Source: a virus
Virus record (IMG/VR): IMGVR_UViG_3300043399_000524
Span: 64,001-128,000 of that record
Reading direction: 5' to 3' (one strand)
DNA length: 64,000 bases
The position numbers were made by a program, and so were the translations under genes. Under the pieces are notes generated by a model, which saw only the letters and a list, made by a program, of their open reading frames with translations, did no database searches and was not told the DNA's origin. Shown here one piece after another: positions 33,636 through 64,000 of this stretch (the stretch's first letter is position 1; each line of letters opens with the position of its first letter).

Positions 33636-34265
33636 ATGAAAAGCCTAAAACAATATATTGTAGAAAGTGTTCACACATACAATTACACGATTAAAATTGC
33701 CGGTAATGTAGACAAAAACTGGCTAGATATGTTCAAGTACAACTTGAAGAAATTTGATCCTGTAAAGATTGATGAACCAAAGACTACACCTATTCAGAAA
33801 GATCCATACGGATTTCCCAACATACACAACCAACCTGTTACTATCATTAAAGCAGAATTTCGTTACCCAGCTAACGAACCCATGATTCAACAAATTGCTC
33901 AATTGTTAGGTTATCAAGTTGATATGGTTCGTGTAATTGGATCAGACTATGACGATAGCATCAACAGCGAAGCAGAAGGCTATGCTAATGAAATGAGTCA
34001 TAATCCATTATTGCTACATCCTGAACTAGAAGAACAACCTGGTGCTAAGGAAGCAAATAAGAATTATTCTGATAGCTATTTAAGCTCTATCAAAGACCAA
34101 GCTAAAGACAGTAAAATTGACATTCCATATGCAGGTACAAAGACTCCTGATGCATTTGATCCATTCAAACCTTATTTGGCAAATGATCCAAGAGGAATGA
34201 AGAGCCCAATGTCAACAATTAAACGTCCACCAAAGCCTGCAACAGGTGCAAGCGCATCAAAATAA
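33636..34265 (+). CDS. Probable internal head protein with capsid-targeting-like N-terminus
   Basis: MKSLKQYIVE|S resembles T4 CTS MKTYQEFIAE; late promoter 33611. Confidence 0.55.
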   Translation: MKSLKQYIVESVHTYNYTIKIAGNVDKNWLDMFKYNLKKFDPVKIDEPKTTPIQKDPYGFPNIHNQPVTIIKAEFRYPANEPMIQQIAQLLGYQVDMVRVIGSDYDDSINSEAEGYANEMSHNPLLLHPELEEQPGAKEANKNYSDSYLSSIKDQAKDSKIDIPYAGTKTPDAFDPFKPYLANDPRGMKSPMSTIKRPPKPATGASASK

Positions 34266-34277
34266 GAGGAATTAAAA

Positions 34278-36542
34278 ATGAACTTCAAAGATATGTTAGA
34301 AAAGATTAGTCTACTAAGTGAAGCTACTAAAGAAACGCCAACGGGTAAAGTACACAAGGCTGAGCCAGGTGGATATGGTCGTAAATATGATACCGATGAA
34401 GAAGGTGATGAAAAAAAAGCAGCCAAGGCAGATGCACCTAAGCGTGGACGCGGCCGCCCCAAGAAAGGCGCTGATGATGCAGGTGAAGTAAAAACATACG
34501 ATACAAAAACATTGGGTGGTGTATTTGGTGGTGGAAAGAAACCCAAAAAAGAAGTAGGTAAAGTTTCTAAAAAGCATAGTTTAAAAGAATATTTTGATTC
34601 ATTAGATTCTGCACTTAATGAGATGCAAACGCAACAACCTATTCCGGTTGTTAGTAAACAGGGCGCTACACAATCAACCGGTGCAGGTTTTATTCATATC
34701 GATGATACCAGCCCTGCAGGCAAAGCAATGAGCGATGCTTTAGGAAAATTGGCACAACAAAAGAAAGCACAGATTGTTGTTCCTACGGCACAACAAGCTA
34801 CACAACAAAAGCCCACGGCTACTGCAGGCGGTGCAACAAATCAACCTGCCATGTCTGAAAAGTGGGAAGGTGGCGCAGAAGTTGAGAAGACCGGTGAGTA
34901 TGCAGGTAAAACAACTGCTGAATTAAAATCTATGTTAGCTAAACTACATAAGAGTGGTCCTCACAAGCGAGGAAGTCCCGAAGAAAAGAAAATGCATCAA
35001 ATCAATTTTGCACTACGAGCAAAGGGTGGTTGGAAAAAAGGTGAAGGTGCGGCATCTAGAGAAGATATGGCAGAAGCAGACATGCCACCGCAGGATTCAA
35101 TGGCAAGTCCATTAACACTAGAAGGAAAAGGTTCTAAACCTGATTTCTTAGATTTAGACAAAGACGGCAACAAAAAAGAATCAATGAAGAAGGCCGCAAA
35201 AGACAAAAAGAAAGTTGATGAAGGTATGGAACATAAACTAAAGGCGGCACGCCATGCAGGCAAGGCACATGCTTTAGCTAAAGAGGGTTACAACTGCCGT
35301 TACGATGACATGGAAGAAGCAAGACACTATCACGAAGGCTATAAAGAAGGCTTGGATGAGTGCTATGGACAAATGCCAATTCAAGGTTATGTAGGTGAAA
35401 CAACTCCACCTGCAACAGTTCCTGGTATGGCTAATCAAGCGGAACACGACGATGTAGAAGAAGGAAATGCTTTTACAGCAGCACTAGCTAAAACACCAAA
35501 AGGTGGTAAGTTCAGTGTAGGCGGTAAGACATTTACAGACAGAACAAACTATGATGCCAAAGTAACAGAAAGCCCATTTGCATTCGAAGCATGGGATAAC
35601 CAATTATCTGCTTTACTTGAAGGTAAAGAAGAAGTTGCCGAAGGCATGACTGTTTCTATCAGCAAGGGTCAACAAGGCATGCCCGACTCTGTTTCAGTAA
35701 CAGCGCAAGACCAAGAAGCTGACCAACTATTAGGTCTAATCAAACAAGCAGGTTTGGGTCTATTTGGTGGTGACGAGGCACAACCAACAGCTTCTAGTCC
35801 AATGTCTCTACAACCAGCAGACGGGGAACATGGCGCTGAAGAAATTGGCGTTGTTGGTGACCATGATGGTATGATGGATTTAATAAAGAAGGTTACTGGT
35901 GCTTCGGTTGGTCCACAAGGCGGCGAAATCTCTGCTGACCACGATGCCGACTACGAAGAAGAAGGTGGTGAAACTCATGACCATGAGCACACTGATGAAG
36001 AAACATGCAACGAATGTGGTATGTACGAGTCAAAATGCGAGTGTGACCATGAAAAAGTTGATGAAGTTGAGTCAGAAGATCAAATGACTTATCAAGTTGC
36101 AGAAGATAATCCTCCTGACAGTGGTGCAGAAGAATTTCAAGCAATGGATCAAGAAATAGCACAAGATAATGCAGCAGCTAGTTCACATGGTGGTGCACAA
36201 AATTCTAACTTAGAAGAAGAATCTGAGGAAGAAGAAGACGACCATGCAGAAGAAGCCGGTGAAAAAGTTACTAAAGACATTGAATACGATGACAAGAAAG
36301 ACAAGAAACTTGACGAATGGGCTAACGAAGCAGGTAAAAAAGGTACAGATACTACATTTGAGCAAGACATTGATTACATGATGAATGTAATCACAGGTGG
36401 TTTGAACAAGCGTAAAGTTACTGGTCAGACAACTATCCCTGTTATCGCAAGTCAAACAAACAGACAAGTTTCTCACAATACTACTGATATAAACGAATCA
36501 ACAGATGATGTTGCAGCATGGAAAAAACTAGCAGGTATTTAA
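34278..36542 (+). CDS. Highly charged modular protein; probable prohead core/internal polyprotein
   Basis: More than 10 [LIVM]xE sites separating short modules; ends WKKLAGI; highly expressed codon usage. Confidence 0.6.
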   Translation: MNFKDMLEKISLLSEATKETPTGKVHKAEPGGYGRKYDTDEEGDEKKAAKADAPKRGRGRPKKGADDAGEVKTYDTKTLGGVFGGGKKPKKEVGKVSKKHSLKEYFDSLDSALNEMQTQQPIPVVSKQGATQSTGAGFIHIDDTSPAGKAMSDALGKLAQQKKAQIVVPTAQQATQQKPTATAGGATNQPAMSEKWEGGAEVEKTGEYAGKTTAELKSMLAKLHKSGPHKRGSPEEKKMHQINFALRAKGGWKKGEGAASREDMAEADMPPQDSMASPLTLEGKGSKPDFLDLDKDGNKKESMKKAAKDKKKVDEGMEHKLKAARHAGKAHALAKEGYNCRYDDMEEARHYHEGYKEGLDECYGQMPIQGYVGETTPPATVPGMANQAEHDDVEEGNAFTAALAKTPKGGKFSVGGKTFTDRTNYDAKVTESPFAFEAWDNQLSALLEGKEEVAEGMTVSISKGQQGMPDSVSVTAQDQEADQLLGLIKQAGLGLFGGDEAQPTASSPMSLQPADGEHGAEEIGVVGDHDGMMDLIKKVTGASVGPQGGEISADHDADYEEEGGETHDHEHTDEETCNECGMYESKCECDHEKVDEVESEDQMTYQVAEDNPPDSGAEEFQAMDQEIAQDNAAASSHGGAQNSNLEEESEEEEDDHAEEAGEKVTKDIEYDDKKDKKLDEWANEAGKKGTDTTFEQDIDYMMNVITGGLNKRKVTGQTTIPVIASQTNRQVSHNTTDINESTDDVAAWKKLAGI

Positions 36543-36555
36543 TTAAAACTTGTAC

Positions 36556-36585
36556 AAAATACCCGGCTTAGCCGGGTATTTTTTT
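36556..36585 (+). terminator. Rho-independent terminator
   Basis: AAAATACCCGGC-tta-GCCGGGTATTTT followed by TTT. Confidence 0.92.
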
Positions 36586-36637
36586 GGGTACGACACTTTA
36601 TGAAAAAACGATAAATACTTAATAAGGTGATTTAAAA

Positions 36638-39600
36638 ATGGCACAACAGAACATTGACTTTGGTTCATTTCCAGACGATCCGTCAGCAGATGCAATAAGA
36701 ACTGCGTTTTCGAAAGTACAAAATAATTTTACACAATTGTTTGATGCAACATCCGGCGCGGCAGTTACATCGGTTAACAGAAGCCCGGGAGCAGGTATAA
36801 CAGTTAATTATCCAACTGGAAACGTAGTAGTATCTGCAAATATCGCTAATATCACAGTATCATCGCCCAACTTACTATTTGGTACTAGCTTGGGTGTTTT
36901 AGCCAGTTCTTTAATATATACATCATCTACTCAAACATTATACATTGTTGTACCCAACACCTTTAGTGTAGGTAATATAGTCGCTTCAGGTAATATTAGC
37001 GTAGGAAATACTCTCACCGTTTCAAAATCTTCCAATTTAGGTAACACTGCAACTGCCAACTATTTTATAGGTTCTGGTAATAACTTATCTAATATACAAG
37101 GGGCAAATATTTCTGGCCCAGTAGGCAGCGCTGTCACTGCACAAACAGTAACCTCAAATGCTCAACCAAATATCACATCAACAGGTACATTAATATCAGT
37201 ATCTGTATCAGGTAATGCTAACATTGGAAACATTGGTACTGTTGGAATAATTACTGCTACTGGTAATATCACGGGTGGCAATTTAATAACAGGTGGTAGT
37301 CTATCAGTTACTGGTAATTCCAACGTAGGTAATATAGGTGCAACATTATTTGTAGGTGATTTATCTAGTACCGGAAACAGTAATGTAGGTAATATAGGTG
37401 CAACATTATTTGTAGGTGATTTATCTAGCACCGGAAACAGTAATGTAGGTAATATAGGTGCAACAGGTGTATATGCTACTACAGTAAGTGCTACAGGTAA
37501 TGTAACTGCAGGTAATATTATTACTACGGGTTCAATCACAGGTTCAGGTGGTAATATATCTGGAGCTAATTATGTAATTGCTAACTATTTTAGTGGAAGT
37601 GGTAATAATCTAAGTAATATTCAAGCATCAAATATCACCGGTACAATCGCAAATGCAAACTATTCCTTATATGCAGGTACAGTTCTAACAAATTCTCAAC
37701 CAAATATAACTAGCGTTGGTACATTAACATCATTATCAGTTTCAGGTAATGCCAATATTGGTAATGTAGGGGCAACCTTATTTGTAGGTAACTTGACTGG
37801 TACTGGGAACAGTAATGTTGGTAATTTAGATGTGATCGGAGTATATGCGGTCACACTAAGTGCTACAGGAAACGCCAATGTAGGCAACATAGGTGCAACA
37901 TATTTAATCGGCAATTTATTCAGTGTCGGGGATAGTAATGCTAACAATCTAGCTGCTAGCGGGTTTATTTCAGCGAATGGTAATATCACCGGTGGTAATT
38001 TAATAACAAGCGGTAATTTATCTGTTACAGGAAATGCTAATATTGGTAATGTTGGTGCAACATTATTTGTAGGTAATTTGAGTGGTACTGGAAACAGTAA
38101 TGTAGGTAATATAGGTGCTACCGGTGTATATACTACCACGTTAAGTGCTACGGGTAATGTAACTGCAGGTAATATTGATATCACAGGTTCAATCACAGGT
38201 TCAGGTGGTAATATATCTGGTGCTAATTATGTAATTGCTAACTATTTTAGTGGAAGTGGTAATAATCTAAGCAATATCCAAGCATCAAACATAACAGGCG
38301 TTATCGCAAACGCAAATTATTCTTTATATGCAGGTACCGTCATTACTGCCTCGCAACCAAATATCACTAGTGTAGGTACATTAACATCATTGTCAGTTTC
38401 AGGTAATGCCAATATTAGTAATATTGTAGGTGGCAATCTAGTAACAAGTGGTTTGATTACTACTACTGGTAATATCAATGGTGGAAATTTATCAATAACA
38501 GGAAATACAAATTTAAATAATTTATCAGTATCTGGTAATCTGACTGCCGGAAGTATTATTATTGATAGCATTGTTAATGGAACCAGTAATGTTGATATTA
38601 CAAATCCTAACGGTAACATTACGATGGGTGTCAGTGGTATTCCTAATATATTTACAGCTACTAGCACCGGTATTGTTATAACAGGAACATTAACTGCTAG
38701 TGGCAACAGCAATGTAGCTAATTTAGAGGCTACCGGTTCAATTACCGGTGCTAATGTTATTGGTGGTAATTTAATATCAACTGGTATTTTATCGGTTACA
38801 GGAAATGCTAATATTGGTAATGTCAGTGCAACATTATTTGTTGGTAATTTATCAAGTACTGGTAATAGTAACATAGGTAATTTAAGTGCTAGTGGATACA
38901 TAACTGCCTTTGGTAATATTTCCGGTGGTAACTTAATAACAAGCGGTAACTTATCTGTTACTGGCAATAGTAACATAGGTAACATAAATGCTACTCAAAT
39001 TAATGCTACAGCAAATATTACTGCACCGCAATTAATTTCAAATGTAACTACTGGCACTCCTCCCTTAATAGTCACATCAACAACTCAAGTTGCTAACTTA
39101 AATGTTGCAACTGCAGGAGCAGCTACGACAGCTGGCACAGTTACAACAGCCGCACAACCTAATATAACTAGTTTAGGTACCCTAACTGAGTTAACAAGTA
39201 CAGGAAATATTAATTTTAATGGTGCTTCAAACATATCCTTAGCAAATGCCAATGTACTACGAATAGGTGGCGGCAGCCTAAACACAGTATTGATAAGTGA
39301 TGGTACGGGTGGAGTAAATTGGGGATCATACTCAGGTTTACCGATTGGTGGATCCAATACTCAAATTCAATTTAATGATGTCGGACTTTTCCAAGGCTCT
39401 GCAAATCTCACATTTAATAAAACAACAAACACATTATCTGCAACAAACATTACATCTAGTACTTTAAGTGCTACCGGAAATGCCAATGTAGGTAATTTGG
39501 GTAGTATAGGTACTATTATTGCTCAAGGAAATATAAATGCCGGCAACTTAGGAACCGGTGGTTCACTAACAGTCACAGGAACGGCAAATGTAGGTAATTT

Positions 39601-40198: not shown

Positions 40199-40818
40199 TT
40201 ACACTAGAATTATTACAGGCAATGTGCCCTAAAACAAGAAAGTCAGTTTTAGAAGGTTATATTGAACCTCTTAATACTGTAGCAGAATATTATGACATGT
40301 TTGAAAATCCAAAGCGTGTTGCGGGATTTTTAGCACAAATTGCACATGAGTCAGGTGGATTCAATGCTGTAGTTGAAAATTTAAATTATTCTGCTAAAGG
40401 TCTAATGACCATATTTAAAAAATATTTTCCTACAGAAGAACTTGCAAAACAGTATGAACGTAAGCCTGAAAAGATTGCTAATCGTGTTTATGCTAATCGC
40501 ATGAGTAATGGTGATGAAGCAAGCGGAGATGGTTGGAAATTTAGAGGTCGTGGATTGATTCAATTGACAGGTAGAGCAAATTATACAAAGTTTGCACAAG
40601 ATTTAGACATGTCTATAGAAGATACAATAGCATATTTAGAAACACCTAACGGTGCTGTAGCAAGCGCAGGATGGTTTTGGGATAATAACAAATTGAATCA
40701 ATTTTGTGATAGGGATGATTTTGTTACGTTGACAAAACGTATAAACGGTGGTACTATTGGTCTTGCCGATAGACAACATCATTATCATATAGCACTACAA
40801 CATTTAGGCGCACATTAA
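40195..40818 (+). CDS. Glycoside hydrolase family 19 endolysin
   Basis: FLAQIAHESGG, ENLNYS, FRGRGLIQLTGRANY, SAGWFW, TKRINGG..GL.DR. Confidence 0.93.
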   Translation: MITLELLQAMCPKTRKSVLEGYIEPLNTVAEYYDMFENPKRVAGFLAQIAHESGGFNAVVENLNYSAKGLMTIFKKYFPTEELAKQYERKPEKIANRVYANRMSNGDEASGDGWKFRGRGLIQLTGRANYTKFAQDLDMSIEDTIAYLETPNGAVASAGWFWDNNKLNQFCDRDDFVTLTKRINGGTIGLADRQHHYHIALQHLGAH

Positions 40819-40819
40819 T

Positions 40820-45950: not shown

Positions 45951-46292
45951 ATGAAAAATTACAGAACCGCAATGGGAAAAACTGTAGATATGGCTGCATT
46001 AGCAGCAAAAAACGAACATACTAGAGCCGTGGGTAATATGAAAGTAAATGCCCGAGGTGACAAAATTGATAGCACCGGACGAGTCATACAACCAGTAAAC
46101 GAGCGTGTAACACAAAATTATTCTCACACTGTAGGTAATAGGTCAGCGAATGCTAGTCGTACCCAATCAACTCCGCCCAAACCTAAAATTGTAGAAGAAC
46201 TTACTCCTCAAGAACTTGAGTTGGAAGACAGCCTAGAGGATGATTTAGAAGTTGAGAAAATTAAAGCACAGGAACTAAAAGGAAAGAAATGA
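45951..46292 (+). CDS. Hypothetical protein
   Basis: SD AAGGAG; VGNMKVNARGD. Confidence 0.75.
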   Translation: MKNYRTAMGKTVDMAALAAKNEHTRAVGNMKVNARGDKIDSTGRVIQPVNERVTQNYSHTVGNRSANASRTQSTPPKPKIVEELTPQELELEDSLEDDLEVEKIKAQELKGKK

Positions 46293-46669
46293 GCGAATAT
46301 TCTAAACCAGCATTCAGTCCCACGAAAGTAGACAAATTACGGTTCATGTACGACAACATTATTGTTTCGGATATGAAATTTGATGAACGCATCAGTCGAG
46401 GAGGTATCGTTCTTTTGGACGATGACAAGAAAAGTTCTGGTATTCGCCCTCGTTGGGCAAAGATTTATGGTTTGGGTCCTGATGTAAAAGATCCACAACT
46501 TGAAATTGGGAAATATATTCTTATCAGTCACGGTCGTTGGACACGAGGTATCACTGTTGAAACTCCAGAGGGCAAAGTCACGTTGCGTAAAGTAGATCCT
46601 AATGATATACTACTTGTGTCGGATGAGCCGATGGAAGATGAAACAATGAGTGATAAGGTTATAGCATGA
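46289..46669 (+). CDS. groES: GroES-like co-chaperonin
   Basis: DNIIV...SRGGIVL...A.I..LGP...IGKYILIS...V...DILLV. Confidence 0.8.
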   Translation: MSEYSKPAFSPTKVDKLRFMYDNIIVSDMKFDERISRGGIVLLDDDKKSSGIRPRWAKIYGLGPDVKDPQLEIGKYILISHGRWTRGITVETPEGKVTLRKVDPNDILLVSDEPMEDETMSDKVIA

Positions 46670-49829: not shown

Positions 49830-50438
49830 ATGATTAAAACCGCCGACAGATTTTTTGATGACGTTGATTATGTCAGTATTATAGACACTGTAAAGGGTAT
49901 CTTTACTAGTGACGGGTCTATGGCCGTTCTACTAGATTTTGAACGAGTATTAGACGAAGCAGATTTATATGCCTTCCGTAACTGGGAATTAGGAGAGTTG
50001 GTTCAGGGCCCCGTAGTAAAACGATACAGTGTAGGCTCCATGTTTATGTGGCCTTATAAATTGATGCCCGATCCTAGGGCATGCAAAAGATTAATACATT
50101 TAGGTTGTAAAATTTACTGGAAAAAAACGAAAATCAAGGTTCCGGTAGAAGTCCAAGATCCAGACGATTTCCAGCCCGGAACACGTTATCCGAAAATGAA
50201 ACCTAAAACAGTTTGGTTGGTTTATATAGAAATGCCCAAAGAACTTATGGACGATATTCGTGAGGGATCTATTGATTTGGCAGGACAGAATATTGACTTG
50301 AATGAATTAGATGATTCATACGATGAAGATATGCAGAAAGAGGATAGTGACGGTACCGAACAAGGTGGAAATACTCAACAGTCTACACCTGATATGGGAG
50401 GTAACGTTGGAGATAATGAACAACTGCCGGCGATGTAA
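49830..50438 (+). CDS. Hypothetical late protein with acidic tail (leaderless start)
   Basis: TAAATA 49819 + 5 nt + ATG. Confidence 0.75.
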   Translation: MIKTADRFFDDVDYVSIIDTVKGIFTSDGSMAVLLDFERVLDEADLYAFRNWELGELVQGPVVKRYSVGSMFMWPYKLMPDPRACKRLIHLGCKIYWKKTKIKVPVEVQDPDDFQPGTRYPKMKPKTVWLVYIEMPKELMDDIREGSIDLAGQNIDLNELDDSYDEDMQKEDSDGTEQGGNTQQSTPDMGGNVGDNEQLPAM

Positions 50439-50440
50439 TT

Positions 50441-50995
50441 ATGACTAATATATTAAATGAAGGCCTAGACTATCACGACTTAGAGGGTATCGTTACACCA
50501 ACGGTTACTGTTGATGAATACGCGGCTAAAATGGGCAAAGATAGCGAAATTGTTACGTTATCTTTCGTTGTTAATAATAAGCAAGCAGGATCAGATTTGA
50601 GTGACTGGTTTGAAAGAGGATATGATTTTGTACTAGATGCACAAGTTAGTGATGGTGAATTAAGTTCAGGAAAATATCTGGTATTTGTTGAGATGAATCG
50701 CAGAACAAGTGTTCCTGAAAGAATTATTAGACTTATAGATGACTTGGAAACATTAACTGACATCCCACTAAAAGATTGGACTATTGTAGTAGATGACGAA
50801 GAATATGAACCAGATGAGGAAGTGTTAAAACAAGTACTAACGTTATCACCACACCAATACCGCGAAACAGTAGAACCAGAAAAAGAAGAAGAATTAAACG
50901 AAATGCGTGAAAGAGCAGGCTTAGAAGTAAAATCACTTTATACAGATAAGCAAGATGCTGATATCAAAGCATTTAAATCAATGGCGGGGTTATAA
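50441..50995 (+). CDS. Hypothetical protein, possible internal head protein
   Basis: MTNILNE|G N-terminus; ends MRERAGL...FKSMAGL. Confidence 0.65.
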   Translation: MTNILNEGLDYHDLEGIVTPTVTVDEYAAKMGKDSEIVTLSFVVNNKQAGSDLSDWFERGYDFVLDAQVSDGELSSGKYLVFVEMNRRTSVPERIIRLIDDLETLTDIPLKDWTIVVDDEEYEPDEEVLKQVLTLSPHQYRETVEPEKEEELNEMRERAGLEVKSLYTDKQDADIKAFKSMAGL

Positions 50996-51584: not shown

Positions 51585-52400
51585 ATGGATTACTATAAGA
51601 CATTAGGGGTAGCTAAAACGGCTACTCCTGATGAAATCAAAAAAGCATATCGCAAACTAGCAAGTCAGCATCACCCGGATAAGGGTGGCGATACCGCTAT
51701 GTTCCAAAAGATCGAAGAAGCATATCGTATTCTTTCAGACCCACAACAACGTCAACAATACGACAATCCAAATCCATTCGGACAACACCCATTTAATAAT
51801 CAAGGTCCAGGATTCCCGGGCGGCTTCCATTTCAATTTTAATGGCGCTGATTTAAATGACATTTTTAGTCAGATGTTTAACCATCATCAGCAACGACACC
51901 CAAATTCTCCCCACACATATAGAACCGCAGTTTCTATTACTTTAGAACAAAGTTACATAGGCGGGTCTATGCCATTAAAATTACAAACCAATACACAAAT
52001 GTATACTGTAAGTATTGACATACCCAAAGGAGTTTCAGATGGTGGTCAATTAAGATATGATAATCTCATACCCAATGCATCTTTAATTGTAGAATTTAGA
52101 GTGCAACCTCATTTAAAATTCGAACGCAAGGGTGTGGATTTATATTGTAATCAACAAATATCAGTGTTGGATTTGATTGTTGGAACCACATTTGAATTCA
52201 CTACGATATCTGGAAAAACATTAGAAGTTAGGGTTCCTCCCAAAACTCAACCACACAAACAATTAAAAATAGCAGGAGAAGGTATGCCTATAAATGGCTC
52301 TACATTATACGGAGACCAAATCATATTGATTAAACCCTTCGTACCTGATAATATCAGTGACGAGATAACACAAAGTATTTTGCGTTCCAAATCCAAATAA
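51585..52400 (+). CDS. dnaJ: DnaJ/CbpA-type co-chaperone (class II, no Zn finger)
   Basis: DYYKTLGV...HHPDKGG J-domain, G/F region, C-terminal domain with G.GMP. Confidence 0.95.
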
Positions 52401-52424: not shown

Positions 52425-54698
52425 ATGACTAATTCACCAGAAATTGAAAGCATTATCGAACAAGCCATTGTTTATGCTAAAGAACGCAAACACCAATACT
52501 GTACGGTAGAGCACTTATTGCTATCATTGATTACGCATACTCCATTCAAAAAATGTTTGGATAGCTTTGGTGCCGATAGTGATATGTTGATTCAGGAAGT
52601 TAGCGCATATTTAGATAGTCTACATGCTATCGAAATTAAAAACGTAACTGCCGACGAAGTTCAACCTCGCAAGACAAACAGCCTTGAGCGCACGATGAAC
52701 CGTAGCATTACACAAGTATTGTTCACTGGTCGCCGTCAAGTCACAACTATCGATTTATATCTTAGCATTGCATCAGAGGGTAACAGTCATGCACATTATT
52801 TCTTGTTGAAATACGGAGTGAACAAACAAGAATTTGTCACGCATTGGCAAAAAACTTACAAAGGTGCTGAGTTTACTGCCAAGTTGTCTGAATCCCAAGC
52901 TGATGAAATTCTCGAAGAATATACCACAAATCTTACTGACCTCGCAAGGCAAGGCAAACTAGAACCGTTGATTGGTCGTAGTAAAGAACTTGATGATATT
53001 GTTAATGTTCTTGCTAAACGATTCAAAGCAAACGTTCTCATGGTTGGTGATCCGGGTGTTGGTAAAACTGCAATTGCAGAAGGTCTTGCAAATATGATTG
53101 TTGCAAATGAATGTCCTGAATTTATTCTCAATCATGAAGTTTATAGTCTTGAGGTCGGTGCATTGCTCGCAGGAAGTAAATATCGTGGCGACTTTGAAGA
53201 AAAAGTCAAGGCAGTATTAGAAGCACTTAACACCAAAAAGAAAGCAATTTTATTCATTGATGAAGCACACACCATGAGTGGTAGTGGTAACGGTAATGGT
53301 GGTAGTGTTGACTTCGCTAACATGATTAAGCCCGCGATTACTAAAGGCACACTAAAAGTTATCGCAAGCACAACATGGGAAGAATTCTACGAGAGTTTTG
53401 AAAAGGACCGCGCACTAATGCGTCGATTCTATCGTGTTGGCATCGATGAACCCAATAAAGAAACTACTATTCGTATTCTAACTGGTTTGTCACAGAGACT
53501 AAGCGAGTTTCATAATGTTGCCGTTTCAGAAGAAGCAATTACAGCAGCAGTGGATTTGGCTGATCGTTACATTCACGACCGTAAAAACCCAGATAAATCC
53601 ATTGATTTGATTGATGCAGCATGTGCTAAACAGCGTGTACTAGACAATAAAGGTGCAATAATTAACAAAGAGTTAATTTATGAACAAGTGGAACGGTTCA
53701 CAGGGGTACCTGCTGATAAACTTCAAGGTGATAACATGGATCGCATACAAACGCTTGAAGTTAACGTTAAAGGTAAACTTTATGGACAGGATGAAACTGT
53801 CGATAAAGTACTAGAACGTGTATATGTTAGTTTTGCGGGTATTGGTAATGAAACTAAACCCACAGCAAGTTTCTTGTTCTTGGGTCCAACAGGTACAGGT
53901 AAAACAGAATTGGCTAAGTTGTTGAGCAAGAACCTCGACATGCCATTACTCAAGTATGATATGTCAGAGTATAGCGAAAAGCACTCGGTTTCTAGCTTGA
54001 TCGGTCCTCCACCTGGTTATGTTGGTTTCGGTGACAGTCAAGTTCAAGGTGGTCGATTAATTTCTGATTTGAGTAAGAACCCACATGCTATCATGTTGTT
54101 TGATGAAGTTGAAAAGGCTCACCCAGATATCTTTAACATCTTCTTGCAAATGCTCGACGAAGGTACTATTACTGGTAGTAACGGTAAAAAAGTTAGCTGC
54201 AAGAACACTATCATTATCATGACCAGTAACTTGGGCAGTAGTGATAGTGAACGTAATAACATTGGTTTCGGTACCCAGGAAAAGACTGGCGAAGATGACA
54301 AGGCACTAAAAGAATTCTTTAAACCTGAGTTCCGTAATCGTTTGGATCTTGTCTGTAAGTTCAATAAACTTGATATGCTTGCGATTAAGAAGATTGTTGT
54401 TAAGTTTGCAGAAGACCTAAAGAAATCAGTACTTGACAAGCACAATATCACATTGAATCTGTCCGAAGAGGCAATTGAGTATCTTGCTGATAAAGGTTAC
54501 GACAAGAAGATGGGAGCTAGACCTCTTGCTCGTAAAATTGATGAATTGATCCGTGTCCCTCTTTCAAAGAAGATTTTATTTGAACGAATTAAAAATGCAA
54601 ATGTTATGGTAAGACTAGAAAACAACGAAATTGTGTTTGATGTGCAACAAAAATTAACAGCTACGGTGAACCAAGATGGGATTATTGAAGTCAATTGA
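52425..54698 (+). CDS. clpA: ClpA-type AAA+ unfoldase
   Basis: 757 aa; GDPGVGKT, KYRGDFE, FIDEAH, GPTGTGKT, GYVGF, FDEVEK; IGF loop NNIGFG; no ClpB middle domain. Confidence 0.93.
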   Translation: MTNSPEIESIIEQAIVYAKERKHQYCTVEHLLLSLITHTPFKKCLDSFGADSDMLIQEVSAYLDSLHAIEIKNVTADEVQPRKTNSLERTMNRSITQVLFTGRRQVTTIDLYLSIASEGNSHAHYFLLKYGVNKQEFVTHWQKTYKGAEFTAKLSESQADEILEEYTTNLTDLARQGKLEPLIGRSKELDDIVNVLAKRFKANVLMVGDPGVGKTAIAEGLANMIVANECPEFILNHEVYSLEVGALLAGSKYRGDFEEKVKAVLEALNTKKKAILFIDEAHTMSGSGNGNGGSVDFANMIKPAITKGTLKVIASTTWEEFYESFEKDRALMRRFYRVGIDEPNKETTIRILTGLSQRLSEFHNVAVSEEAITAAVDLADRYIHDRKNPDKSIDLIDAACAKQRVLDNKGAIINKELIYEQVERFTGVPADKLQGDNMDRIQTLEVNVKGKLYGQDETVDKVLERVYVSFAGIGNETKPTASFLFLGPTGTGKTELAKLLSKNLDMPLLKYDMSEYSEKHSVSSLIGPPPGYVGFGDSQVQGGRLISDLSKNPHAIMLFDEVEKAHPDIFNIFLQMLDEGTITGSNGKKVSCKNTIIIMTSNLGSSDSERNNIGFGTQEKTGEDDKALKEFFKPEFRNRLDLVCKFNKLDMLAIKKIVVKFAEDLKKSVLDKHNITLNLSEEAIEYLADKGYDKKMGARPLARKIDELIRVPLSKKILFERIKNANVMVRLENNEIVFDVQQKLTATVNQDGIIEVN

Positions 54699-55982: not shown

Positions 55983-55983
55983 T

Positions 55984-57564
55984 ATGTCTATGATTGTTAT
56001 TATGCCGGGCGGCTTTCATCCCTTTCACGCAGGTCATTATGCGTTGTACCAATCTGCATTAAAAGCCTTTCCTGGTGCAGAAGTTTATGTGGCCGCAACC
56101 AATGATATGAGCGAAAGACCTTTCCCCTTCGCACTAAAAGAGAAACTAGCAAAGCTAGCAGGTGTTAAGCCGGGACATTTTGTACAAGTTAAAAGTCCAT
56201 TCAAAGCGGAAGAAATTACAAAGAACTACGATCCAGAAAAAGATATATTAATATTTGTTCGAAGTGAAAAAGACAAAGACGAGAGTCCCAAACCAGGCGG
56301 CATTAAGAAAGATGGCACTCCTGCTTATTTCCAACCATGGACAGGAAAAGATGCTCAGCCATTTGCTAAACATGCATATTTTGCATATCTACCAACTGTT
56401 GAGTTTGGTCCTGGAATCACAAGTGCTACACAGATTCGTAAAGCATGGCCTACACTAAATGACAGACGCAAGACCGCACTTGTTATGAGTTTGTATCCTG
56501 GAGCACAAAAGAATCCTAAACTAGCACAAAATGTGGTTGGTATGTTTGACCAAGTTATGGGTGGACAAGTAAGTGAAGGTGTAGCAGAGAATAAAGAAAA
56601 TAAATGTCCACCTGCTACACAAGATATTACATTAAATCTTAAAAATCGTCAAAAAGCAATTGATGAATATGGTTATGGTCCATTAAATCCTGACTTACCT
56701 AACACTAAGTTTTGGATGAAAAAAGTAGACGAGTGGAATCTAGATTCTGTAGAAGAAGCCAAACAAAGTTTGTGTGGTAATTGTGCAGCGTTTGATATAC
56801 GTCAAGATACATTAGATTGTATTGCTAAAGGTATAGATAGCGATAATCCCAGTGATGCTGAAGTTACAATTGATGCAGGTGAATTAGGTTATTGTAAGTT
56901 TTTAAAATTCAAATGTGCTAGTCGCAGAACGTGTGACGCATGGGTAACCGGTGGACCACTTATAGACAAGAAAGACGTAACAGAGAGTACAGATAAAAAA
57001 GAAGCAACTCGCAGAATACAAAAAATGTTAAATGATAAGTTTGGTGCTAATTTAGATATCGACGGTATCTTAGGACCACTTACATTACAATCAATAAACA
57101 AATTTATGCCAAATGCCAAAGTAGGGCCTGCTGATGAACCTAATAAAACTACTGCTGTGCAAGGTAAAAAATATAAAGATGTATCAGAAGATAAAAGTGA
57201 CGCAATTGCTAGAACAGTAAAAGACTTAACCAACCCACCCAAAGTCATGCAACATCGCAGCAAGCGTGATATGGAACGAGAAAAAGAATTACAATACAGA
57301 AACATTTCTAAAAGAACCAATGAAGGATTTGGTCCTGGATATCCTGAGACATACGAACAAGAAAACAAACCCTTCAAACACAAAGGTGGTTACCGTATCA
57401 CTGATATAACAAGTGAAGATGTTAACGAAGAACATGTTTATCGTGGTAATGCACCCGGTGAAGCAGTTAGAACTGCCAAACCCAAACGCATGCCTAGTCA
57501 AGTTGAATTAAATAGAAAAAAGGGTATATTGCCTGAAAGTATCGATTACATAGACGAGATATAA
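55984..57564 (+). CDS. HIGH-motif (cytidylyltransferase-like) domain fused to a chain of short modules
   Basis: IMPGGFHPFHAGH, ERPF, SATQIR; then Cys-rich CPPAT...CGNC...YC...C..W and PG-binding-like DGILGPLT modules. Confidence 0.75.
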   Translation: MSMIVIMPGGFHPFHAGHYALYQSALKAFPGAEVYVAATNDMSERPFPFALKEKLAKLAGVKPGHFVQVKSPFKAEEITKNYDPEKDILIFVRSEKDKDESPKPGGIKKDGTPAYFQPWTGKDAQPFAKHAYFAYLPTVEFGPGITSATQIRKAWPTLNDRRKTALVMSLYPGAQKNPKLAQNVVGMFDQVMGGQVSEGVAENKENKCPPATQDITLNLKNRQKAIDEYGYGPLNPDLPNTKFWMKKVDEWNLDSVEEAKQSLCGNCAAFDIRQDTLDCIAKGIDSDNPSDAEVTIDAGELGYCKFLKFKCASRRTCDAWVTGGPLIDKKDVTESTDKKEATRRIQKMLNDKFGANLDIDGILGPLTLQSINKFMPNAKVGPADEPNKTTAVQGKKYKDVSEDKSDAIARTVKDLTNPPKVMQHRSKRDMEREKELQYRNISKRTNEGFGPGYPETYEQENKPFKHKGGYRITDITSEDVNEEHVYRGNAPGEAVRTAKPKRMPSQVELNRKKGILPESIDYIDEI

Positions 57565-57620
57565 AATTTTTCGACACCCCTATTGCCATGTAAATAATCT
57601 TATCTTATTAAGAGGAATTT

Positions 57621-58607: not shown

Positions 58608-58610
58608 AAT

Positions 58611-58631
58611 AGCCCCGAAAGGGGCTTTTTT
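58611..58631 (+). terminator. Rho-independent terminator
   Basis: AGCCCC-gaaa-GGGGCT followed by TTTTT. Confidence 0.9.
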
Positions 58632-58690
58632 GTGGCTATACATTAGAGTAGTTCTCTTAATATTCGATAAATATATAAAGAGGATTCAGC

Positions 58691-59419
58691 ATGGCAAACA
58701 ATCAAATAGAATATCCAATATCTGGAGCATATGACGGGAACATAATAACTACACCAGCTTTTATACCAGAGCCGCCGCCTCCTATAGATACAACTCCTAC
58801 TATAGTTAAACCATTGGGTGTTGGGTCAGAATCTGAAACAAATATTATTCCTAAAAATATTAATTCAATGAGAAATCCAACAGGATTTGGTATTGTTTCG
58901 GTTACTGGTCAGGATTCCTTAATTGCTAATTCTTATATGGATCAGTTAAATATTGTGTCCGGTAACAATATCAATATAACAACTGATGCAGCTACAACTT
59001 CCGTAACAATATCAGCAGAAACACTCAATGCAATTACTGATGTACTTCCCGGTACTGGAATCGGTGTAACTGGAAACAGCACTTCAGTTATAGTTACAAA
59101 TACATTTACTGAAATAGTATATTCAGGAGGAAATGCAATTGGCACACTCACCCCTAATAGAAACAACGGTACCGTTCAAAAATTTACATTAACAGGAAAT
59201 ATCGTATTAGCTCCTCCTACCAATATGTTAGCCGGCCAAAGTTTGACATTAATACTTACTCAAGATTCTGTAGGAAACAGAATACTAGACGCAAATACTG
59301 CTTACTTGTTCGCTAGTGGATTTCAAACTTTGAGTACAGCATCAGGTGCAATTGATATGATAAACATTTTTACTGATGGCACAACATATTATGGTACGTT
59401 AACAGTGGGGTATTCATAA
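58691..59419 (+). CDS. Probable virion/tail accessory protein
   Basis: Late promoter 58668; DVLPGTGIGV repeat; C-terminal QKFTLTGN...SLTLILTQD..G.R. Confidence 0.6.
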   Translation: MANNQIEYPISGAYDGNIITTPAFIPEPPPPIDTTPTIVKPLGVGSESETNIIPKNINSMRNPTGFGIVSVTGQDSLIANSYMDQLNIVSGNNINITTDAATTSVTISAETLNAITDVLPGTGIGVTGNSTSVIVTNTFTEIVYSGGNAIGTLTPNRNNGTVQKFTLTGNIVLAPPTNMLAGQSLTLILTQDSVGNRILDANTAYLFASGFQTLSTASGAIDMINIFTDGTTYYGTLTVGYS

Positions 59420-60096
59420 TGCCTATAGGAGCCTCTCGATTAGGATTTTGGTTTGTACCTTCAAGTCCGCCGGATCCAGAAGATCCAGTAGAACAGTTCA
59501 CAAATTTAGGTTTCGAAGAAGGAATATCTGGCTGGACGGTAGCTGCAACTAGGATTAGATTTAATGGTTTAAGCCTGTTAGCCGGGTTTCCTACTCCTAC
59601 AGATCCAGATCCCCAAGGGGCCGGCGCCGGAGATGCTATCGTTGTAAACACAATGCCAACTTTTAGGTACCTTCTAAACACAGTTGACAAACCTCCATTA
59701 GGACAGGTGCAAAGTATGCATTTGATTATGGGTGATCCGCAAGAAGGTCAAGTAAATGCGTTCGGCGCCCTATACGGTCCAGCAATTTACAGTAATTTTT
59801 ATGTCAATTTCAATGCCGGCGATCAAGTGGCGTTTGATTGGAGAGCAAGACCATTGAGTGATGCTTATACTGTTTTTGCTTATATGATCGAAAAAGATAC
59901 GGGTAATGTTATCAATCTATTAAGATCATGGGGTCAAAGTTCTAGCTCAGGAACTTCGTGGACTACGACAACAGTAAATGTAACTACAACCGGAGCATAC
60001 AAGTTTGTATTTGTAGCAGGTAGTTGGGACAGAACGGGCGGTACTATTATCGGCGGTGAAATGTTAATCGATAATATCAGAAGGATACAACCTTAA
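59419..60096 (+). CDS. Probable virion protein (beta-sandwich, lectin-like)
   Basis: NLGFEEGISGW; aromatic-rich beta strands. Confidence 0.55.
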   Translation: MPIGASRLGFWFVPSSPPDPEDPVEQFTNLGFEEGISGWTVAATRIRFNGLSLLAGFPTPTDPDPQGAGAGDAIVVNTMPTFRYLLNTVDKPPLGQVQSMHLIMGDPQEGQVNAFGALYGPAIYSNFYVNFNAGDQVAFDWRARPLSDAYTVFAYMIEKDTGNVINLLRSWGQSSSSGTSWTTTTVNVTTTGAYKFVFVAGSWDRTGGTIIGGEMLIDNIRRIQP

Positions 60097-60110
60097 TAAA
60101 TATTTAAACT

Positions 60111-62267
60111 ATGAATTTAAAAGAACTAGACTCCTTCAAAATTTCTGATGCTATTACTTTCCACGATAAGTTAAATCCTAAACTGTGGGCAGGTAATAAG
60201 TTGCGCCCTGAAGTTAAAAATCAACTAGAATCTATCGCAGAAGATTTTTTACAAGAAATGGGAATACATGATTTAGACGTTAGAGATATTACTATTTCTG
60301 GTTCTAATGCAGCATACAGTTATAATAAACACAGTGATATTGACTTACATATTTTAGTCAACATGAATGATTTACCAAACAGTGACATTTATAAAGAGTT
60401 GTTTAATGCCAAGAAAACAATATACAATGATTCACATGACATTACTATTCACGGTATTCCTGTAGAATTATATGTGGAAAATGCAGCAGAACCTGCAGTT
60501 ACCTTAGGTGAGTACAGTATCAAAAATGACAAATGGTTACGAATTCCCACAAAACGCAGGGCAAATTTTGACCAAAAATCTACCAAGTTAAAATATGAGA
60601 AACTACTTGATATTGTTAAACGAGCATTAAAGTCTAAAGACTTAGATAAAATTCAAAAAGTTTTAAAGAAAATTAAACAATATAGACAAGCGGGATTAGA
60701 TAAAGGCGGAGAGTTTGGTCCCGAAAATCTAGCATTCAAAGCATTGCGTAGTCAGGGCTGGATCACTAAATTATATGAATTACGTGATAAATTGCATAGC
60801 GAAAAGTTAAGCATTGAAAGCATGTATGCCAGCGAAGATTACAATCCAAATGGTCCACCACCTGGTCCTGAATTCAAACCAACTATGCCTAAGGGCACAG
60901 TCAAGGTAGACGTTAGTGACGTATATGATTGGTATAAACTAGGTCAACACATTAGCAATATGAAGGGCTTAGGGCAACATGACTTTGGTCAAGGACCACC
61001 TAGTACTATATTATCTTTTGGTGATGAAGATACTGAACATCAATACATACAAGATTTAGAAAAAACAGGATTGACAACTACTGATGTTGACCCGCCCGCA
61101 CATGATAAAATAAAAGGTCAAAAAACTGATCCAAGATTTAATGTCGAAGAAGCTAAAGTTCCTAATATTCGCCAACAAATAATTGATACTGTCAAAAAGT
61201 ATGGTGGCGATATAAATGACTATTTTGTGCGATTCACAGATACCGATAAATTAGGATTCAGCGCAAAACAAGGGTTTGGTAAAACTCCAGATGTTGACAA
61301 TCCTAAATTTGATGTAGACTATATTGGTCAAGGTGAGGGTCGCAGAGCATTATGGTTTTATCCACTAAGTTATTATCTCAAGGACAAACGAGGTGTTTAT
61401 GCCAGCGATAATCCATATATTTGGTTAGTAAAATTAAAACCCAATGCATGGATGCAAACCGTTAAGCGTGGCGATAATAAAGTACAGCAAGCCCCTAAAG
61501 GTAAAGAGCGTGTGGGCATGTTAAGAATGAGTGATCCTCCCGCAGCTATCTTTTTTACATATGGATTTGACGTAGTTGGCCGCTATTATGACTATGCAGG
61601 GCAACATAAAAGACACGGTGAAGTAAAAGGTCGTCCAGATCCTAGTTTCTTTGATAAAATCAGGGGTATTGACGAGGATTTTACAGGTCAGTACGCTAGT
61701 GAAAAAACACCAGTTATAAGTCCATATGCAGGTGTTAAAGATAATCAATATCGTGGTGCAATATCAGAAAACTCAACATCAACGTTTGTCTATCATGTCA
61801 CTCCCACAAAGAATATAAAGTCAATAGCAAAGCAAGGTCTTACTCCGACAGTGGGTGATAGGGCAAGTCAAATTGCAGGTGAAAAATCTGGAATCTATGT
61901 ATTCCCTGACAAAGTAAGCGCAGAAGATGCGGTTATGAATTGGTTAGGAGATGAATTCGATGACGAACCATTAACGATGCTAAAGATTGATATTTCTGGT
62001 TTAGAAAACAACATCACTAAAGGTGCTGACTATGAATTGATAGTTGGTACTACAATTGAACCTAAACGAATCAAAAAAGTCAATATTCAATTAGAAGAAG
62101 CATCAGGTTATATACCCTCAGAAAAAGAAAAAAACGATCCTCGTTTTAAGACAGCATTAACAGTAGATATTAAGCCCTACACTATGAAGAAGGACGCTAA
62201 AAAGTTCGGAAACACAATAAGTCGTGCAGGTATACCCCCAACTCTCAAACCCTCAGGCAAATTCTGA
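60111..62267 (+). CDS. Modular protein: Pol-beta-family nucleotidyltransferase + unknown modules + ADP-ribosyltransferase-fold (Tpt1/KptA-like) domain
   Basis: ITISGSNAAYSY...SDIDLH...PVELY; late module YHVTPTKNIKSIAKQGLTP...GIYVF...LKID...E...IEPKRI. Confidence 0.75.
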   Translation: MNLKELDSFKISDAITFHDKLNPKLWAGNKLRPEVKNQLESIAEDFLQEMGIHDLDVRDITISGSNAAYSYNKHSDIDLHILVNMNDLPNSDIYKELFNAKKTIYNDSHDITIHGIPVELYVENAAEPAVTLGEYSIKNDKWLRIPTKRRANFDQKSTKLKYEKLLDIVKRALKSKDLDKIQKVLKKIKQYRQAGLDKGGEFGPENLAFKALRSQGWITKLYELRDKLHSEKLSIESMYASEDYNPNGPPPGPEFKPTMPKGTVKVDVSDVYDWYKLGQHISNMKGLGQHDFGQGPPSTILSFGDEDTEHQYIQDLEKTGLTTTDVDPPAHDKIKGQKTDPRFNVEEAKVPNIRQQIIDTVKKYGGDINDYFVRFTDTDKLGFSAKQGFGKTPDVDNPKFDVDYIGQGEGRRALWFYPLSYYLKDKRGVYASDNPYIWLVKLKPNAWMQTVKRGDNKVQQAPKGKERVGMLRMSDPPAAIFFTYGFDVVGRYYDYAGQHKRHGEVKGRPDPSFFDKIRGIDEDFTGQYASEKTPVISPYAGVKDNQYRGAISENSTSTFVYHVTPTKNIKSIAKQGLTPTVGDRASQIAGEKSGIYVFPDKVSAEDAVMNWLGDEFDDEPLTMLKIDISGLENNITKGADYELIVGTTIEPKRIKKVNIQLEEASGYIPSEKEKNDPRFKTALTVDIKPYTMKKDAKKFGNTISRAGIPPTLKPSGKF

Positions 62268-62312
62268 TTAAACGGTATTTTGATAAATACTATATAAATT
62301 CGGAATTTAGCT

Positions 62313-63101
62313 ATGAAAATCAATCAAATCATCAGTGAAACTACAACAGCGGGAGCAGTCGCACCCGTAAGTCAAAGTTTTGTTAAAATGTCAAGTCGCA
62401 ATCCTGTCGTAAGCAGCAAAAAGGGTAATAATCTGTTGACTGGAAAAGTGACTAATAAAAAGTACGCAAACAGCGTTAACGAAAGCAAAATGAAAGACCT
62501 TGTAATGGATCTAAAGTCAGGTCCAGATGGTTTGACAGATGAAGAATTCAAAAAGAAATATAACAAGAGTAAAGCTGAAATGCGTAAAGCAATGCGTGAT
62601 TCTGACAAAGAAATGAAGCAACAAAAGCCAGAACCAGTCAGTGAAGCAGATTTACACGAAGAAGATAAAATTATTGCTGTTGGTAAAGGTAACAAACTAA
62701 AGCCCGGGTTATTAGATAAGCCAATAAATTCAATGAACCCTACTGATACTGTCAAAGTTGATGTTCCATTTTTAATCAGACTATTAGAATTCGCAAGAGA
62801 AGATGCTAGTTCTGATATGGATCTACATGACCTAGCAGAAAAGTTAGTTGACAGAGGTCGTCGTGGTAAGACATTAACCATGAAAGACTATGAGTATGTT
62901 GTTGACAAACCCCAAGTTGACGAGAAAGCTGTCAGCAAAGCACAGCAAAGATTCATGGGCATGGTTCATGCTGTTCAAAAAGGCGAAATGAAGGCTCCTA
63001 GCAAAGAAGTAAGCAAAGTAGCTAAAGGCATGAGTAAGAAAGCAGGACATGACTATGCTGCAACTAAGCACAAGGGTCTACCAGAAAAGGTCAAAAAATG
63101 A
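62313..63101 (+). CDS. Modular charged protein, probable internal head polyprotein
   Basis: MKINQIISE|T; modules including VDVPFLIRLLEFARED and KAVSKAQQRFMGMVHA (DUF3008-like). Confidence 0.65.
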   Translation: MKINQIISETTTAGAVAPVSQSFVKMSSRNPVVSSKKGNNLLTGKVTNKKYANSVNESKMKDLVMDLKSGPDGLTDEEFKKKYNKSKAEMRKAMRDSDKEMKQQKPEPVSEADLHEEDKIIAVGKGNKLKPGLLDKPINSMNPTDTVKVDVPFLIRLLEFAREDASSDMDLHDLAEKLVDRGRRGKTLTMKDYEYVVDKPQVDEKAVSKAQQRFMGMVHAVQKGEMKAPSKEVSKVAKGMSKKAGHDYAATKHKGLPEKVKK

Positions 63102-64000
63102 GCAACATTTTCAAAGGACTAAACGAAGCTATTGATATCGGCAGTATGCAAGCCGAGTATAGAACTCGCAAGGCAGAGATTGAAAAGAATGCTGAACAAT
63201 ACTCTAAAAAGTATAGCATTCCTACTGACGACCAATATTTTGCTCAGAAAGTTATGCAAGCGCAGGATCGTGAAAAAGATCAAGCTAGATTAGCACAGCA
63301 AAAGCAACAATCGGCTGCTGCACAACAACAAAGTGTTGCTGGTGATAAACAAAATATTGAAGCACTAAAGCAACAATTGCAAAAGTTAAAGGGTCAACTT
63401 GATCCCAACTATCAACAAAGTGACGATTACACATTCGTTAGTCAACAACAAAGAATTGCAAATGCTATTCAAGGTTTAGAAAAGCGTATCAGTGCTGCCA
63501 ATGTATCAGAAGAAACAATACATGTAGGTCACCGTAACTCAAAAGGTGACTGGGTAAAAACCAGCACACATAGTAACTATGCTGATGCAGAAGCTGCAAT
63601 GAAAGAATTAGAGAAGGCTGGTAAGAAAGGTGTTCAACATCGTTATGACAACAAGGGCAATATTGATCCTGGTGCCATGATGACCGCAAGACCAGATTCT
63701 GGAATGTTAGAAGCAGAACAAGATTTAGGTCCTAAATATCAATCAGCAGTGGCAGCATTGAAACAAATGGCTAAACAAGGTCCGCGTAAAACTGTTTGGG
63801 ATCCTGTCAAGCGTGTGTACAAGACTGTTCCAGTTAATCCACCTAAGAAAGAAGAAGGTGTGTCGGAAGGATCATCTACAGGCAATTTACTCTCAAGATC
63901 GGGATTCAAAGAAATTAGAAAAATAAAACACGGTGCTGAGTATAGCAATGGGCGTCAAGCAGTTAGTATTCAAATTGATCCATCGGATCCCGATTGGATT
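63098..64000 (+). CDS. Partial modular protein running off the window (not in the ORF track)
   Basis: ATG 63098 MSNIFKGLNE|AID...; frame stays open to base 64000; VSE|E, MLE|A and VSE|G sites. Confidence 0.85.
   Translation, partial: MSNIFKGLNEAIDIGSMQAEYRTRKAEIEKNAEQYSKKYSIPTDDQYFAQKVMQAQDREKDQARLAQQKQQSAAAQQQSVAGDKQNIEALKQQLQKLKGQLDPNYQQSDDYTFVSQQQRIANAIQGLEKRISAANVSEETIHVGHRNSKGDWVKTSTHSNYADAEAAMKELEKAGKKGVQHRYDNKGNIDPGAMMTARPDSGMLEAEQDLGPKYQSAVAALKQMAKQGPRKTVWDPVKRVYKTVPVNPPKKEEGVSEGSSTGNLLSRSGFKEIRKIKHGAEYSNGRQAVSIQIDPSDPDWI

Follow-up and report, generated by a model that had tools for sequence, protein, structure and literature searches.

The stretch of DNA analysed here (the window) comprises 64,000 nucleotides, bases 64001-128000 of the 139,307-bp IMG/VR contig IMGVR_UViG_3300043399_000524, for which CheckV estimates a completeness of 39%. 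Several of its open reading frames (ORFs) encode proteins that start with a short leader resembling the capsid targeting sequence (CTS) of phage T4, that consist of small modules joined at hydrophobic-x-Glu (phi-x-E) sites, or that combine both features. Placed by its gene content (tube proteins, fibres, clamp loader, terminase and a 1198-residue sheath), the contig is a fragment of a jumbo myovirus of the T4 superfamily and, judged by sheath, terminase and head genes, its lineage is T4/Rak2/PA5oct-like. The sheath shares 46-47% identity with its counterparts in Atu_ph07 and PA5oct across about 60% of its length, and the contig also encodes homologues of proteins labelled as virion proteins in 121Q/PBECO4-type phages. 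No near-identical DNA was found among GenBank phages; many metagenomic relatives have a terminase 81-91% identical to that of the contig. Two relatives, the complete 524-kb genome G001 and L198, are used repeatedly below. The genes in question are the following (window coordinates; the arrow marks the position after the Glu of a predicted site):

33636..34265, plus strand: 209-residue protein with the CTS-like leader MKSLKQYIVE↓S (33636-33665); 78 orthologues, 80% identical to the one in G001
34278..36542, plus strand: 754-residue, very acidic protein (net charge -51) with the leader MNFKDMLEKISLLSE↓A; orthologues of 700-1150 residues
50441..50995, plus strand: 184-residue acidic protein (net charge -23) starting MTNILNE↓GLDYHDLE↓G, with a C-terminal FKSMAGL; phrog_13138, E = 3.4e-22
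55984..57564, plus strand: 526-residue protein, an N-terminal cytidylyltransferase-like domain (PF01467, E = 3.8e-4, just above the cut-off) followed by swapped modules
60111..62267, plus strand: 718-residue chain with an N-terminal domain (phrog_36119), a variable middle, a DYTG-type module, an insert and a conserved C-terminal module
61770..62099, plus strand: 110-residue inserted module of ORF 60111 with a Glu site at each end, delimited by comparison with L198
62313..63101, plus strand: 262-residue basic protein with the leader MKINQIISE↓T (62313-62339), then SVNE↓S, and DUF3008 after QVDE↓K (62928-63092)
63098..64000, plus strand: residues 1-301 of a 611-residue module chain, basic (+30), whose last 933 nucleotides lie beyond the window; leader MSNIFKGLNE↓A at 63098-63127, GVSE↓G linker at 63857-63868

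ORF 33636 has no Pfam and no PHROG match, and ORF 34278 no Pfam match and a single PHROG match of unknown function (phrog_24078, E = 1e-06). The DUF3008 of ORF 62313 is recovered by Pfam at E = 1.4e-4 and by phrog_30268 at E = 1e-17.

Leaders shared by unrelated proteins

An initial annotation of this DNA had proposed that ORFs 33636, 34278, 50441, 62313 and 63098 carry leaders ending in hydrophobic-x-Glu, and all five N-termini indeed read as it described. A strict form of the leader, M-[KR]-x-x-[EQ]-[FIYL]-[ILV]-x-E, starts 7 of the 184 ORFs of the contig, with 0.008 expected, and 9 of the 629 ORFs of G001, with 0.02 expected, a more than 300-fold enrichment at N-termini. Once the leader is removed, the cargoes fall into at least 10 unrelated groups, including a GNAT protein (Pfam E = 2.9e-8) and a HExxH protein; a Pfam scan of the small leader-tagged proteins gave no match. 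The clearest strict leaders lie outside the window: MRAREFI[AT]E in three proteins, MRASEFITE in a double-GNAT protein, MRYTEFVTE in the HExxH protein, and MRINEILTE. Within the window ORF 62313 fits the strict pattern, and the leader of ORF 33636 is one residue longer, which is the length of the T4 tag.

From their sequences, the putative leaders of the contig are of two kinds: type A (MRxxEF[IV]xE, MKINQIISE and MKSLKQYIVE) and type B, MSNI[LF]KGLxE, as in ORF 63098 and, in a related form, ORF 50441. Type B occurs both at N-termini and as the internal linker KE↓SxIL[KE]GL. The leaders are conserved where orthologues are available. That of ORF 33636, M[KR]SL..[YF]I-x-E↓S, is present in 78/78 orthologues, with I and E fixed and V, T, A, M or F as the middle residue. 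For ORF 34278, the N-termini of 22 full-length orthologues (11 distinct) were tallied, and the leader ends L-[NS]-E↓A in each of them. The I/L-N-E↓G of ORF 50441 is retained in G001, the form MKI[NST]QII.E↓T of ORF 62313 is conserved, and MSNI[LFI]KGL.E is recurrent across the family of ORF 63098.

The T4 CTS is MKTYQEFIAE (PMC8442874). Mutants of this tag assign targeting to residues 4 and 7 and processing to residues 8 and 10, and the cleavage motif of the T4 protease gp21 is L/I-x-E (PMC9026906). Residues 7, 8 and 10 of the T4 tag (F, I and E) are those kept in MRxxEFIxE. With Asp at the cut position, T4 proteins are still targeted but no longer processed. The likeness to T4 noted initially extends from the CTS to proven gp21-cut propeptides: T4 gp24 starts MAKINELLRE↓STTT and ORF 62313 MKINQIISE↓TTTA, and T4 gp22 and gp21 start in a similar style.

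The same type of N-terminus marks a paralogous family of about 130 residues located just upstream of the terminase (genome 40326-42383; L002:326-2383). Its members all start MRAxEF[IV]xE and end (F)KGYKRK, and 80 related loci yielded 111 copies, in 56 of them.

Module chains and the joints between their parts

ORF 63098 belongs to a family with more than 7,900 database homologues built of shuffled micro-modules. A global alignment of 40 chain proteins was useless because of their mosaic order (4,099 columns); hidden Markov models of the modules were instead built from ORF 63098 and located in the best 120 of the more than 7,900 homologues. These 120 proteins display 52 module orders. For four module types, the residues directly ahead of the module are phi-x-E in 75/75, 54/57, 20/21 and 34/34 distinct contexts (background 2.6% per residue), with boundaries that are not fully independent of the motif, as the module seeds started just after Glu; for the remaining two types, phi-x-E is offset upstream by a few residues. 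Identical short linkers (EQLDE, QGVAE and phi-x-NE) are found ahead of unrelated modules, whatever their order. Within ORF 63098 itself the linkers are acidic and the modules basic.

The short homologues provide a count that is independent of the seed boundaries: the residues preceding their first module end in phi-x-E in 51/51 distinct cases. These residues are often no more than a bare leader of 8-9 residues, as in MRAEEFINE↓NLHKW, MRYQEILE↓ACW and MKISEILTE↓RWSQ. The leader therefore occupies the position of the linker before the same module start, and the two are interchangeable. The enrichment of the motif at domain borders expected in the initial annotation is thus recovered as a position before homology-defined modules, whereas bulk counts are only modestly raised. 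Indeed, phi-x-E is a very weak motif, common by chance, and the signal is positional, not numerical.

The other ORFs of the window show the same anatomy. In ORF 60111, the DYTG-type module follows GIDE↓D (61677-61769), and phi-x-E precedes DYTG in 34/34 contexts; homology to the L198 orthologue covers residues 1-555 and 661-718, and the extra 110 residues lie exactly between AISE↓ and QLEE↓A. Among the orthologues of ORF 62313, the first 130 residues or so are kept and the remainder is swapped, and its DUF3008, preceded here by QVDE↓K, is preceded by INE↓K in a protein of cyanophage S-CAM22. The modules of ORF 55984 follow GVAE↓N (nucleotides 56578-56589) and KVDE↓W / SVEE↓A, its combination of a nucleotidyltransferase with DUF5872 recurs in the family, and its homology to two G001 orthologues stops at residues 216 and 254. 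In ORF 34278, the sites KVDE↓G, EVAE↓G, KVDE↓V and KLDE↓W are conserved and lie at the N-terminal borders of conserved islands, which are set in variable, acidic stretches. The shuffling of modules among orthologues anticipated in the initial annotation was therefore observed, with modules inserted and swapped at Glu sites. Among the junctions it had named, IDE↓D, ISE↓N, LEE↓A, VDE↓K, VDE↓G, LDE↓W, VSE↓G and VAE↓N fit, but some breakpoints fall away from Glu sites.

These observations could also be accommodated by virion or internal proteins that are left uncut, in which acidic spacers separate small DNA-binding modules, phi-x-E is a capping feature and at most the leader is removed. We consider this unlikely, given that one linker precedes unrelated modules in any order, that a removable leader takes the linker position in single-module genes, and that a prohead protease of low specificity is expected to cut any exposed L/I/V-x-E. 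It would nevertheless agree with the presence of phi-x-E inside modules and its over-representation proteome-wide, with the single cut made in T4 internal proteins, and with cyanophage proteomics, in which the protein was found without sign of fragments.

One linker is, in addition, conserved at the level of DNA. In three genomes (the contig, L198 and G001), (Q/E)GV(A/S)E is written GGT GTG GCG/TCG GAA at nearly all sites:

56578-56589 and 63857-63868 (window): GGT GTG GCG/TCG GAA linker sites
48200, 48335 and 128481 (genome positions): further sites on the contig, with others in L198 and G001

The codons GTG and GCG each make up 7-10% of their codon family in those three genomes (10% and 8%, respectively, in the contig, with about 37% GC). 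This suggests that the GVAE/GVSE linker is also constrained as a nucleotide sequence, as a candidate recombination joint or translational pause. The linkers might then be mainly DNA-level joints for the exchange of modules, the peptide being partly a by-product and cleavage secondary or absent. The codon choice, the large-scale permutation of module orders and the one insertion with Glu sites at both ends are what such joints would leave behind. On the other hand, EQLDE, the commonest linker, varies synonymously (TTA/CTT/CTA, GAT/GAC) with its peptide kept, and the leader keeps its hydrophobic residue and Glu while the residue between them varies, both pointing to selection on the protein. Recombination at these joints and cleavage of the encoded peptide are mutually compatible, and we find it improbable that the linkers serve mainly the first.

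Virion homologues, the head protease and proposed processing in the prohead

The genes for cyanophage homologues of the ORF 63098 modules form part of the virion gene block: the P-SSM2 gene is flanked by gp15 and gp16, and the S-CAM22 gene follows gp16. The P-SSM2 protein, PSSM2_123, is annotated T4-GC119, a cluster detected in purified S-SM1 virions with 13 peptide counts (Sullivan et al. 2010 Table S8, PMC3037559). The cytidylyltransferase T4-GC190 gave 25 counts in S-SM1 virions (PMC3037559 Table S8), and its P-SSM2 member starts with a CTS-like tag, MKSFSQFLTE↓T. The transferase domain of ORF 55984 showed no homology by tblastn to this cyanophage virion protein, and the two have only PF01467 in common. 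In S-SCSM1, where virion proteins were identified by mass spectrometry of CsCl-purified particles and include an NMN adenylyltransferase (PMC9602691), the chain protein S-SCSM1_29, whose joints read GVSE↓G, FNE↓D and VSE↓G, is annotated 'virion protein'. Phages 121Q and PBECO4 have homologues of ORF 50441 that carry the annotation 'virion structural protein', and in 121Q-type jumbo phages the match covers two neighbouring genes with this annotation.

The presence of homologues in purified virions, together with the resemblance of the leader to the T4 tag and propeptides at functionally mapped residues and the scaffold-type C-terminal tail of two ORFs (see below), makes it very improbable that these proteins are not head cargo. 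They would in that case be regulators or polyproteins of the cytoplasm, either uncut or cleaved by a different protease with Glu specificity, and the leader would serve, for example, translation initiation or secretion. Such a role would suit genes that are scattered outside the head module, the leaderless ORF 55984, and the sigma-70 region 4 or TAT-like signal carried by some family members.

A T4 gp21-type protease (PF03420; Peptidase S77) is encoded in three of the four large relatives tested, and the terminases of these carriers are 81-87% identical to that of the contig. The gene order of the G001 head module is portal, acidic protein, protease, gp22-like scaffold and gp23-like capsid protein. 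Encoded at L090:13668-14312, the protease of G001 shares 35% identity with T4 gp21 and retains the His and Ser motifs (GE..HP and GVSSRG). The capsid protein of G001 aligns L-A-E↓S opposite L-T-E↓A of T4 gp23, the position at which gp21 cuts gp23.

We consider it probable, at roughly 60%, that the tagged module chains are cargo taken into the capsid and split into separate pieces inside it by the head protease. From the anatomy and conservation of these proteins, the equivalence of leader and linker, the protease of the relatives and the virion homologues, we infer targeting, cleavage, the function of the pieces and injection. In this scheme, the genome would be that of a T4-superfamily jumbo myovirus of roughly 350 kb, whose head is made with a T4 gp21-type protease cutting after Glu in L/I-x-E. 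The N-terminal address peptide (type A or B) would bind the scaffolding core, by analogy with the T4 CTS, and the shell assembling round the core would enclose the tagged protein, from which the tag would be clipped off. The chains would bring in occasional enzymes along with modules that are small, bear Cys or Trp and are for the most part basic; between these units lie short linkers of acidic character (EQLDE↓, QGVAE↓, KE↓SxIL[KE]GL...E↓), each with the same protease site at its end. In the prohead, the protease would cut every exposed linker, freeing each module as a small protein in its own right. Of the pieces, the basic ones would remain with the DNA for charge neutralisation or condensation, and the enzymes and any inhibitors would be available for entry into the host alongside the DNA. 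Because each module brings its own Glu-terminated joint, modules could be added, lost or permuted without harm to the others.

Several observations weigh against this scheme. The cyanophage data record the presence of homologues in virions and say nothing about their processing. The gp21-like protease that the initial annotation proposed to locate was found, with the capsid L-A-E site, in close relatives, but neither the capsid nor the prohead-protease gene was found on the contig, a 39%-complete fragment. A loose [LIVMF]-x-E in the first 16 residues occurs in 51 of the 184 ORFs, about the chance level, and is uninformative alone. Of the seven ORFs, four have mildly raised raw motif counts (z 2.2-2.9) and three do not, and the rest of the proteome is in excess too (z 4.3). 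Those hydrophobic-x-Glu sites that lie inside conserved folded modules would need protection by the fold. A leader is missing from ORF 55984, whose breakpoint at residue 216 is not a Glu site. Finally, the conservation of rare codons in the GVAE linker suggests a role at the nucleic-acid level that cleavage does not explain.

The initial annotation had read all of the named ORFs as injected effectors, and for two of them this should be revised. The C-terminal motif K-x-[LM]-A-G-[LI] is found in the contig and G001 only in the gp22-like scaffold of G001 (L090:14315-15418) and in the proteins of ORFs 34278 and 50441 and their orthologues:

36500-36542: WKKLAGI, C-terminal tail of ORF 34278
50950-50995: FKSMAGL, C-terminal tail of ORF 50441

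The C-terminus of T4 gp68 is KALGLS. This tail may be an anchor to the core or the shell, and the product of ORF 50441 is likely a prohead core protein. Because of their acidic charge and the C-terminal tail in common with the gp22-type scaffold, ORFs 34278 and 50441 look more like components of the prohead core than like injected effectors.

A wider generalization is possible, although we hold it to be doubtful: that one site, at once the end of the tag, the joint of the cargo and, for at least the GGTGTGGCGGAA-encoded linker, a splice point in the DNA, forms a general grammar of head cargo, with which T4-related phages of lakes and oceans could build, permute and exchange order-free polyproteins, composed of small DNA-binding peptides and host-directed enzymes, that are cut in the prohead and delivered with the genome.

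Relation to known systems and neighbouring genes

Judged from sequence features, the closest known system is that of the T4 internal proteins, the CTS and gp21. Common to both are a leader of about 10 residues that ends in L/I-x-E and preserves F, I and E of EFIxE, a constant tag on diverse cargo with fast turnover, basic proteins that remain, or here would remain, with the DNA, and a gp21-type protease in the lineage. In contrast to the T4 internal proteins, which are single and cut once, many cargoes of the type found here are multi-module chains with internal sites, known from sequence alone. There are also at least two leader types, and the family spans thousands of proteins of uncultured aquatic phages. 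It has already been suggested in reviews that T4-like phages can use the CTS to load a variety of proteins.

ORFs 34278 and 50441 can also be compared with T4 gp22, gp67 and gp68, which gp21 cuts into several fragments and which are likewise acidic with many L/I-x-E sites. No sequence homology to gp22, gp67 or gp68 was detected, and ORF 34278, with its conserved islands, is far larger than these core proteins.

The inner-body and ejection proteins of phiKZ, 201phi2-1 and SPN3US are similar in being processed by a gp21-related protease; in giant phages many head proteins are cut after Glu at a three-residue motif, some of them at multiple sites, with removal of long propeptides. However, proteases of the phiKZ type use S/A/G-x-E or A-x-E, whereas the junctions described here have L/I/V/F/M at P3; the inner-body proteins show no cargo homology to the chains, and no freely permuted strings of micro-modules have been described there. 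With a hydrophobic P3 and a T4/Rak2/PA5oct-like lineage, the chains do not belong to the phiKZ-type inner-body proteins.

Polyvalent proteins (Iyer et al. 2017, PMC5512222) are multi-domain proteins of phages and conjugative elements for which delivery together with DNA and processing into functional units have been proposed. They differ in their domain repertoire and in the proposed processing by a zincin-like peptidase (MPTase) domain that they typically carry themselves, while here the head protease would act on linkers between modules of mostly 25-90 residues. Pfam and PHROG scans of the chain proteins detected no MPTase, and the chains were not assigned to this class; the HExxH protein (g133861) is encoded by a separate leader-tagged gene and is not part of a chain.

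In the literature, including that on DUF5872, DUF3008, DUF6321 and polyprotein cargo, we found no description of permuted micro-module chains joined by head-protease sites or of these leaders. Apart from DNA, the contents of giant-phage heads are known mainly from T4 and the phiKZ group. If the proposed packaging and cleavage are correct, head cargo could be recognised directly in the sequences of thousands of T4-related phages that have not been cultured, and there would be an explanation for a very large family of mosaic proteins that lack names (DUF3008, DUF5872, DUF6321 and the cyanophage cluster T4-GC119). The natural tags and cleavable joints could also be used for loading foreign proteins into T4-type capsids.

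Two cargoes offer a lead on enzymatic function. The insert of ORF 60111 has Arr-ms and PARP among its ESM atlas neighbours (0.94), and a leader-tagged 123-residue protein (genome 26543-26914; L001:6543-6914) also has Arr/PARP-like neighbours there (0.92-0.94 across the two). Searches of both by BLAST, with an Arr-ms hidden Markov model and against PDB sequences gave no match to an ADP-ribosyltransferase, and AlphaFold2 single-sequence models were unusable (pLDDT 40 for the 123-residue protein and 36 for the insert). These neighbours, taken from a language model, provide only a lead that both are possibly small ADP-ribosyltransferase-like domains which, if real, would parallel T4 Alt.

The scan for late promoters was too weak to support the description of these ORFs as late, with the T4-late-promoter-like ATAAATA found, among the noted ORFs, upstream of 60111 and 62313 only. 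Two further genes adjoin the ORFs discussed above:

33122..33607, plus strand: 161-residue acidic neighbour of ORF 33636 starting MTKKLQELFE↓L, N-terminus conserved in 80 orthologues; phrog_16202 (function unknown); a possible, weak member of the tagged set
49830..50438, plus strand: 202-residue homologue of proteins annotated as virion structural (phrog_12928, E = 1.4e-29)

Homing-endonuclease-like paralogues (GIY-YIG/HNH-type) are scattered along the contig, in the window at 32382-33125 and 22060-23157 and at genome positions 10721, 13804, 48773, 50895, 53281, 129820, 132705 and 135181, one of them directly upstream of the 33122-36542 block. The window also encodes a set of chaperones, namely a GroES-like protein (46289-46669), DnaJ (51585-52400) and a 757-residue ClpA/B-type AAA+ protein (52425-54698) with no ClpP nearby, and this set is syntenic in L198. 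In G001, the contig end (523174-524565) is an inverted duplicate of part of a chain gene (175621-179142), probably an assembly artefact, so that the length of G001 may overstate the genome size. Finally, a ferritin/Dps-like gene (genome 130614-131066; L198 11865-12311) lies in a conserved neighbourhood downstream of the chain gene, which it abuts in the relatives L198 and L199, while in the contig it lies about 1.7 kb downstream with two genes between.

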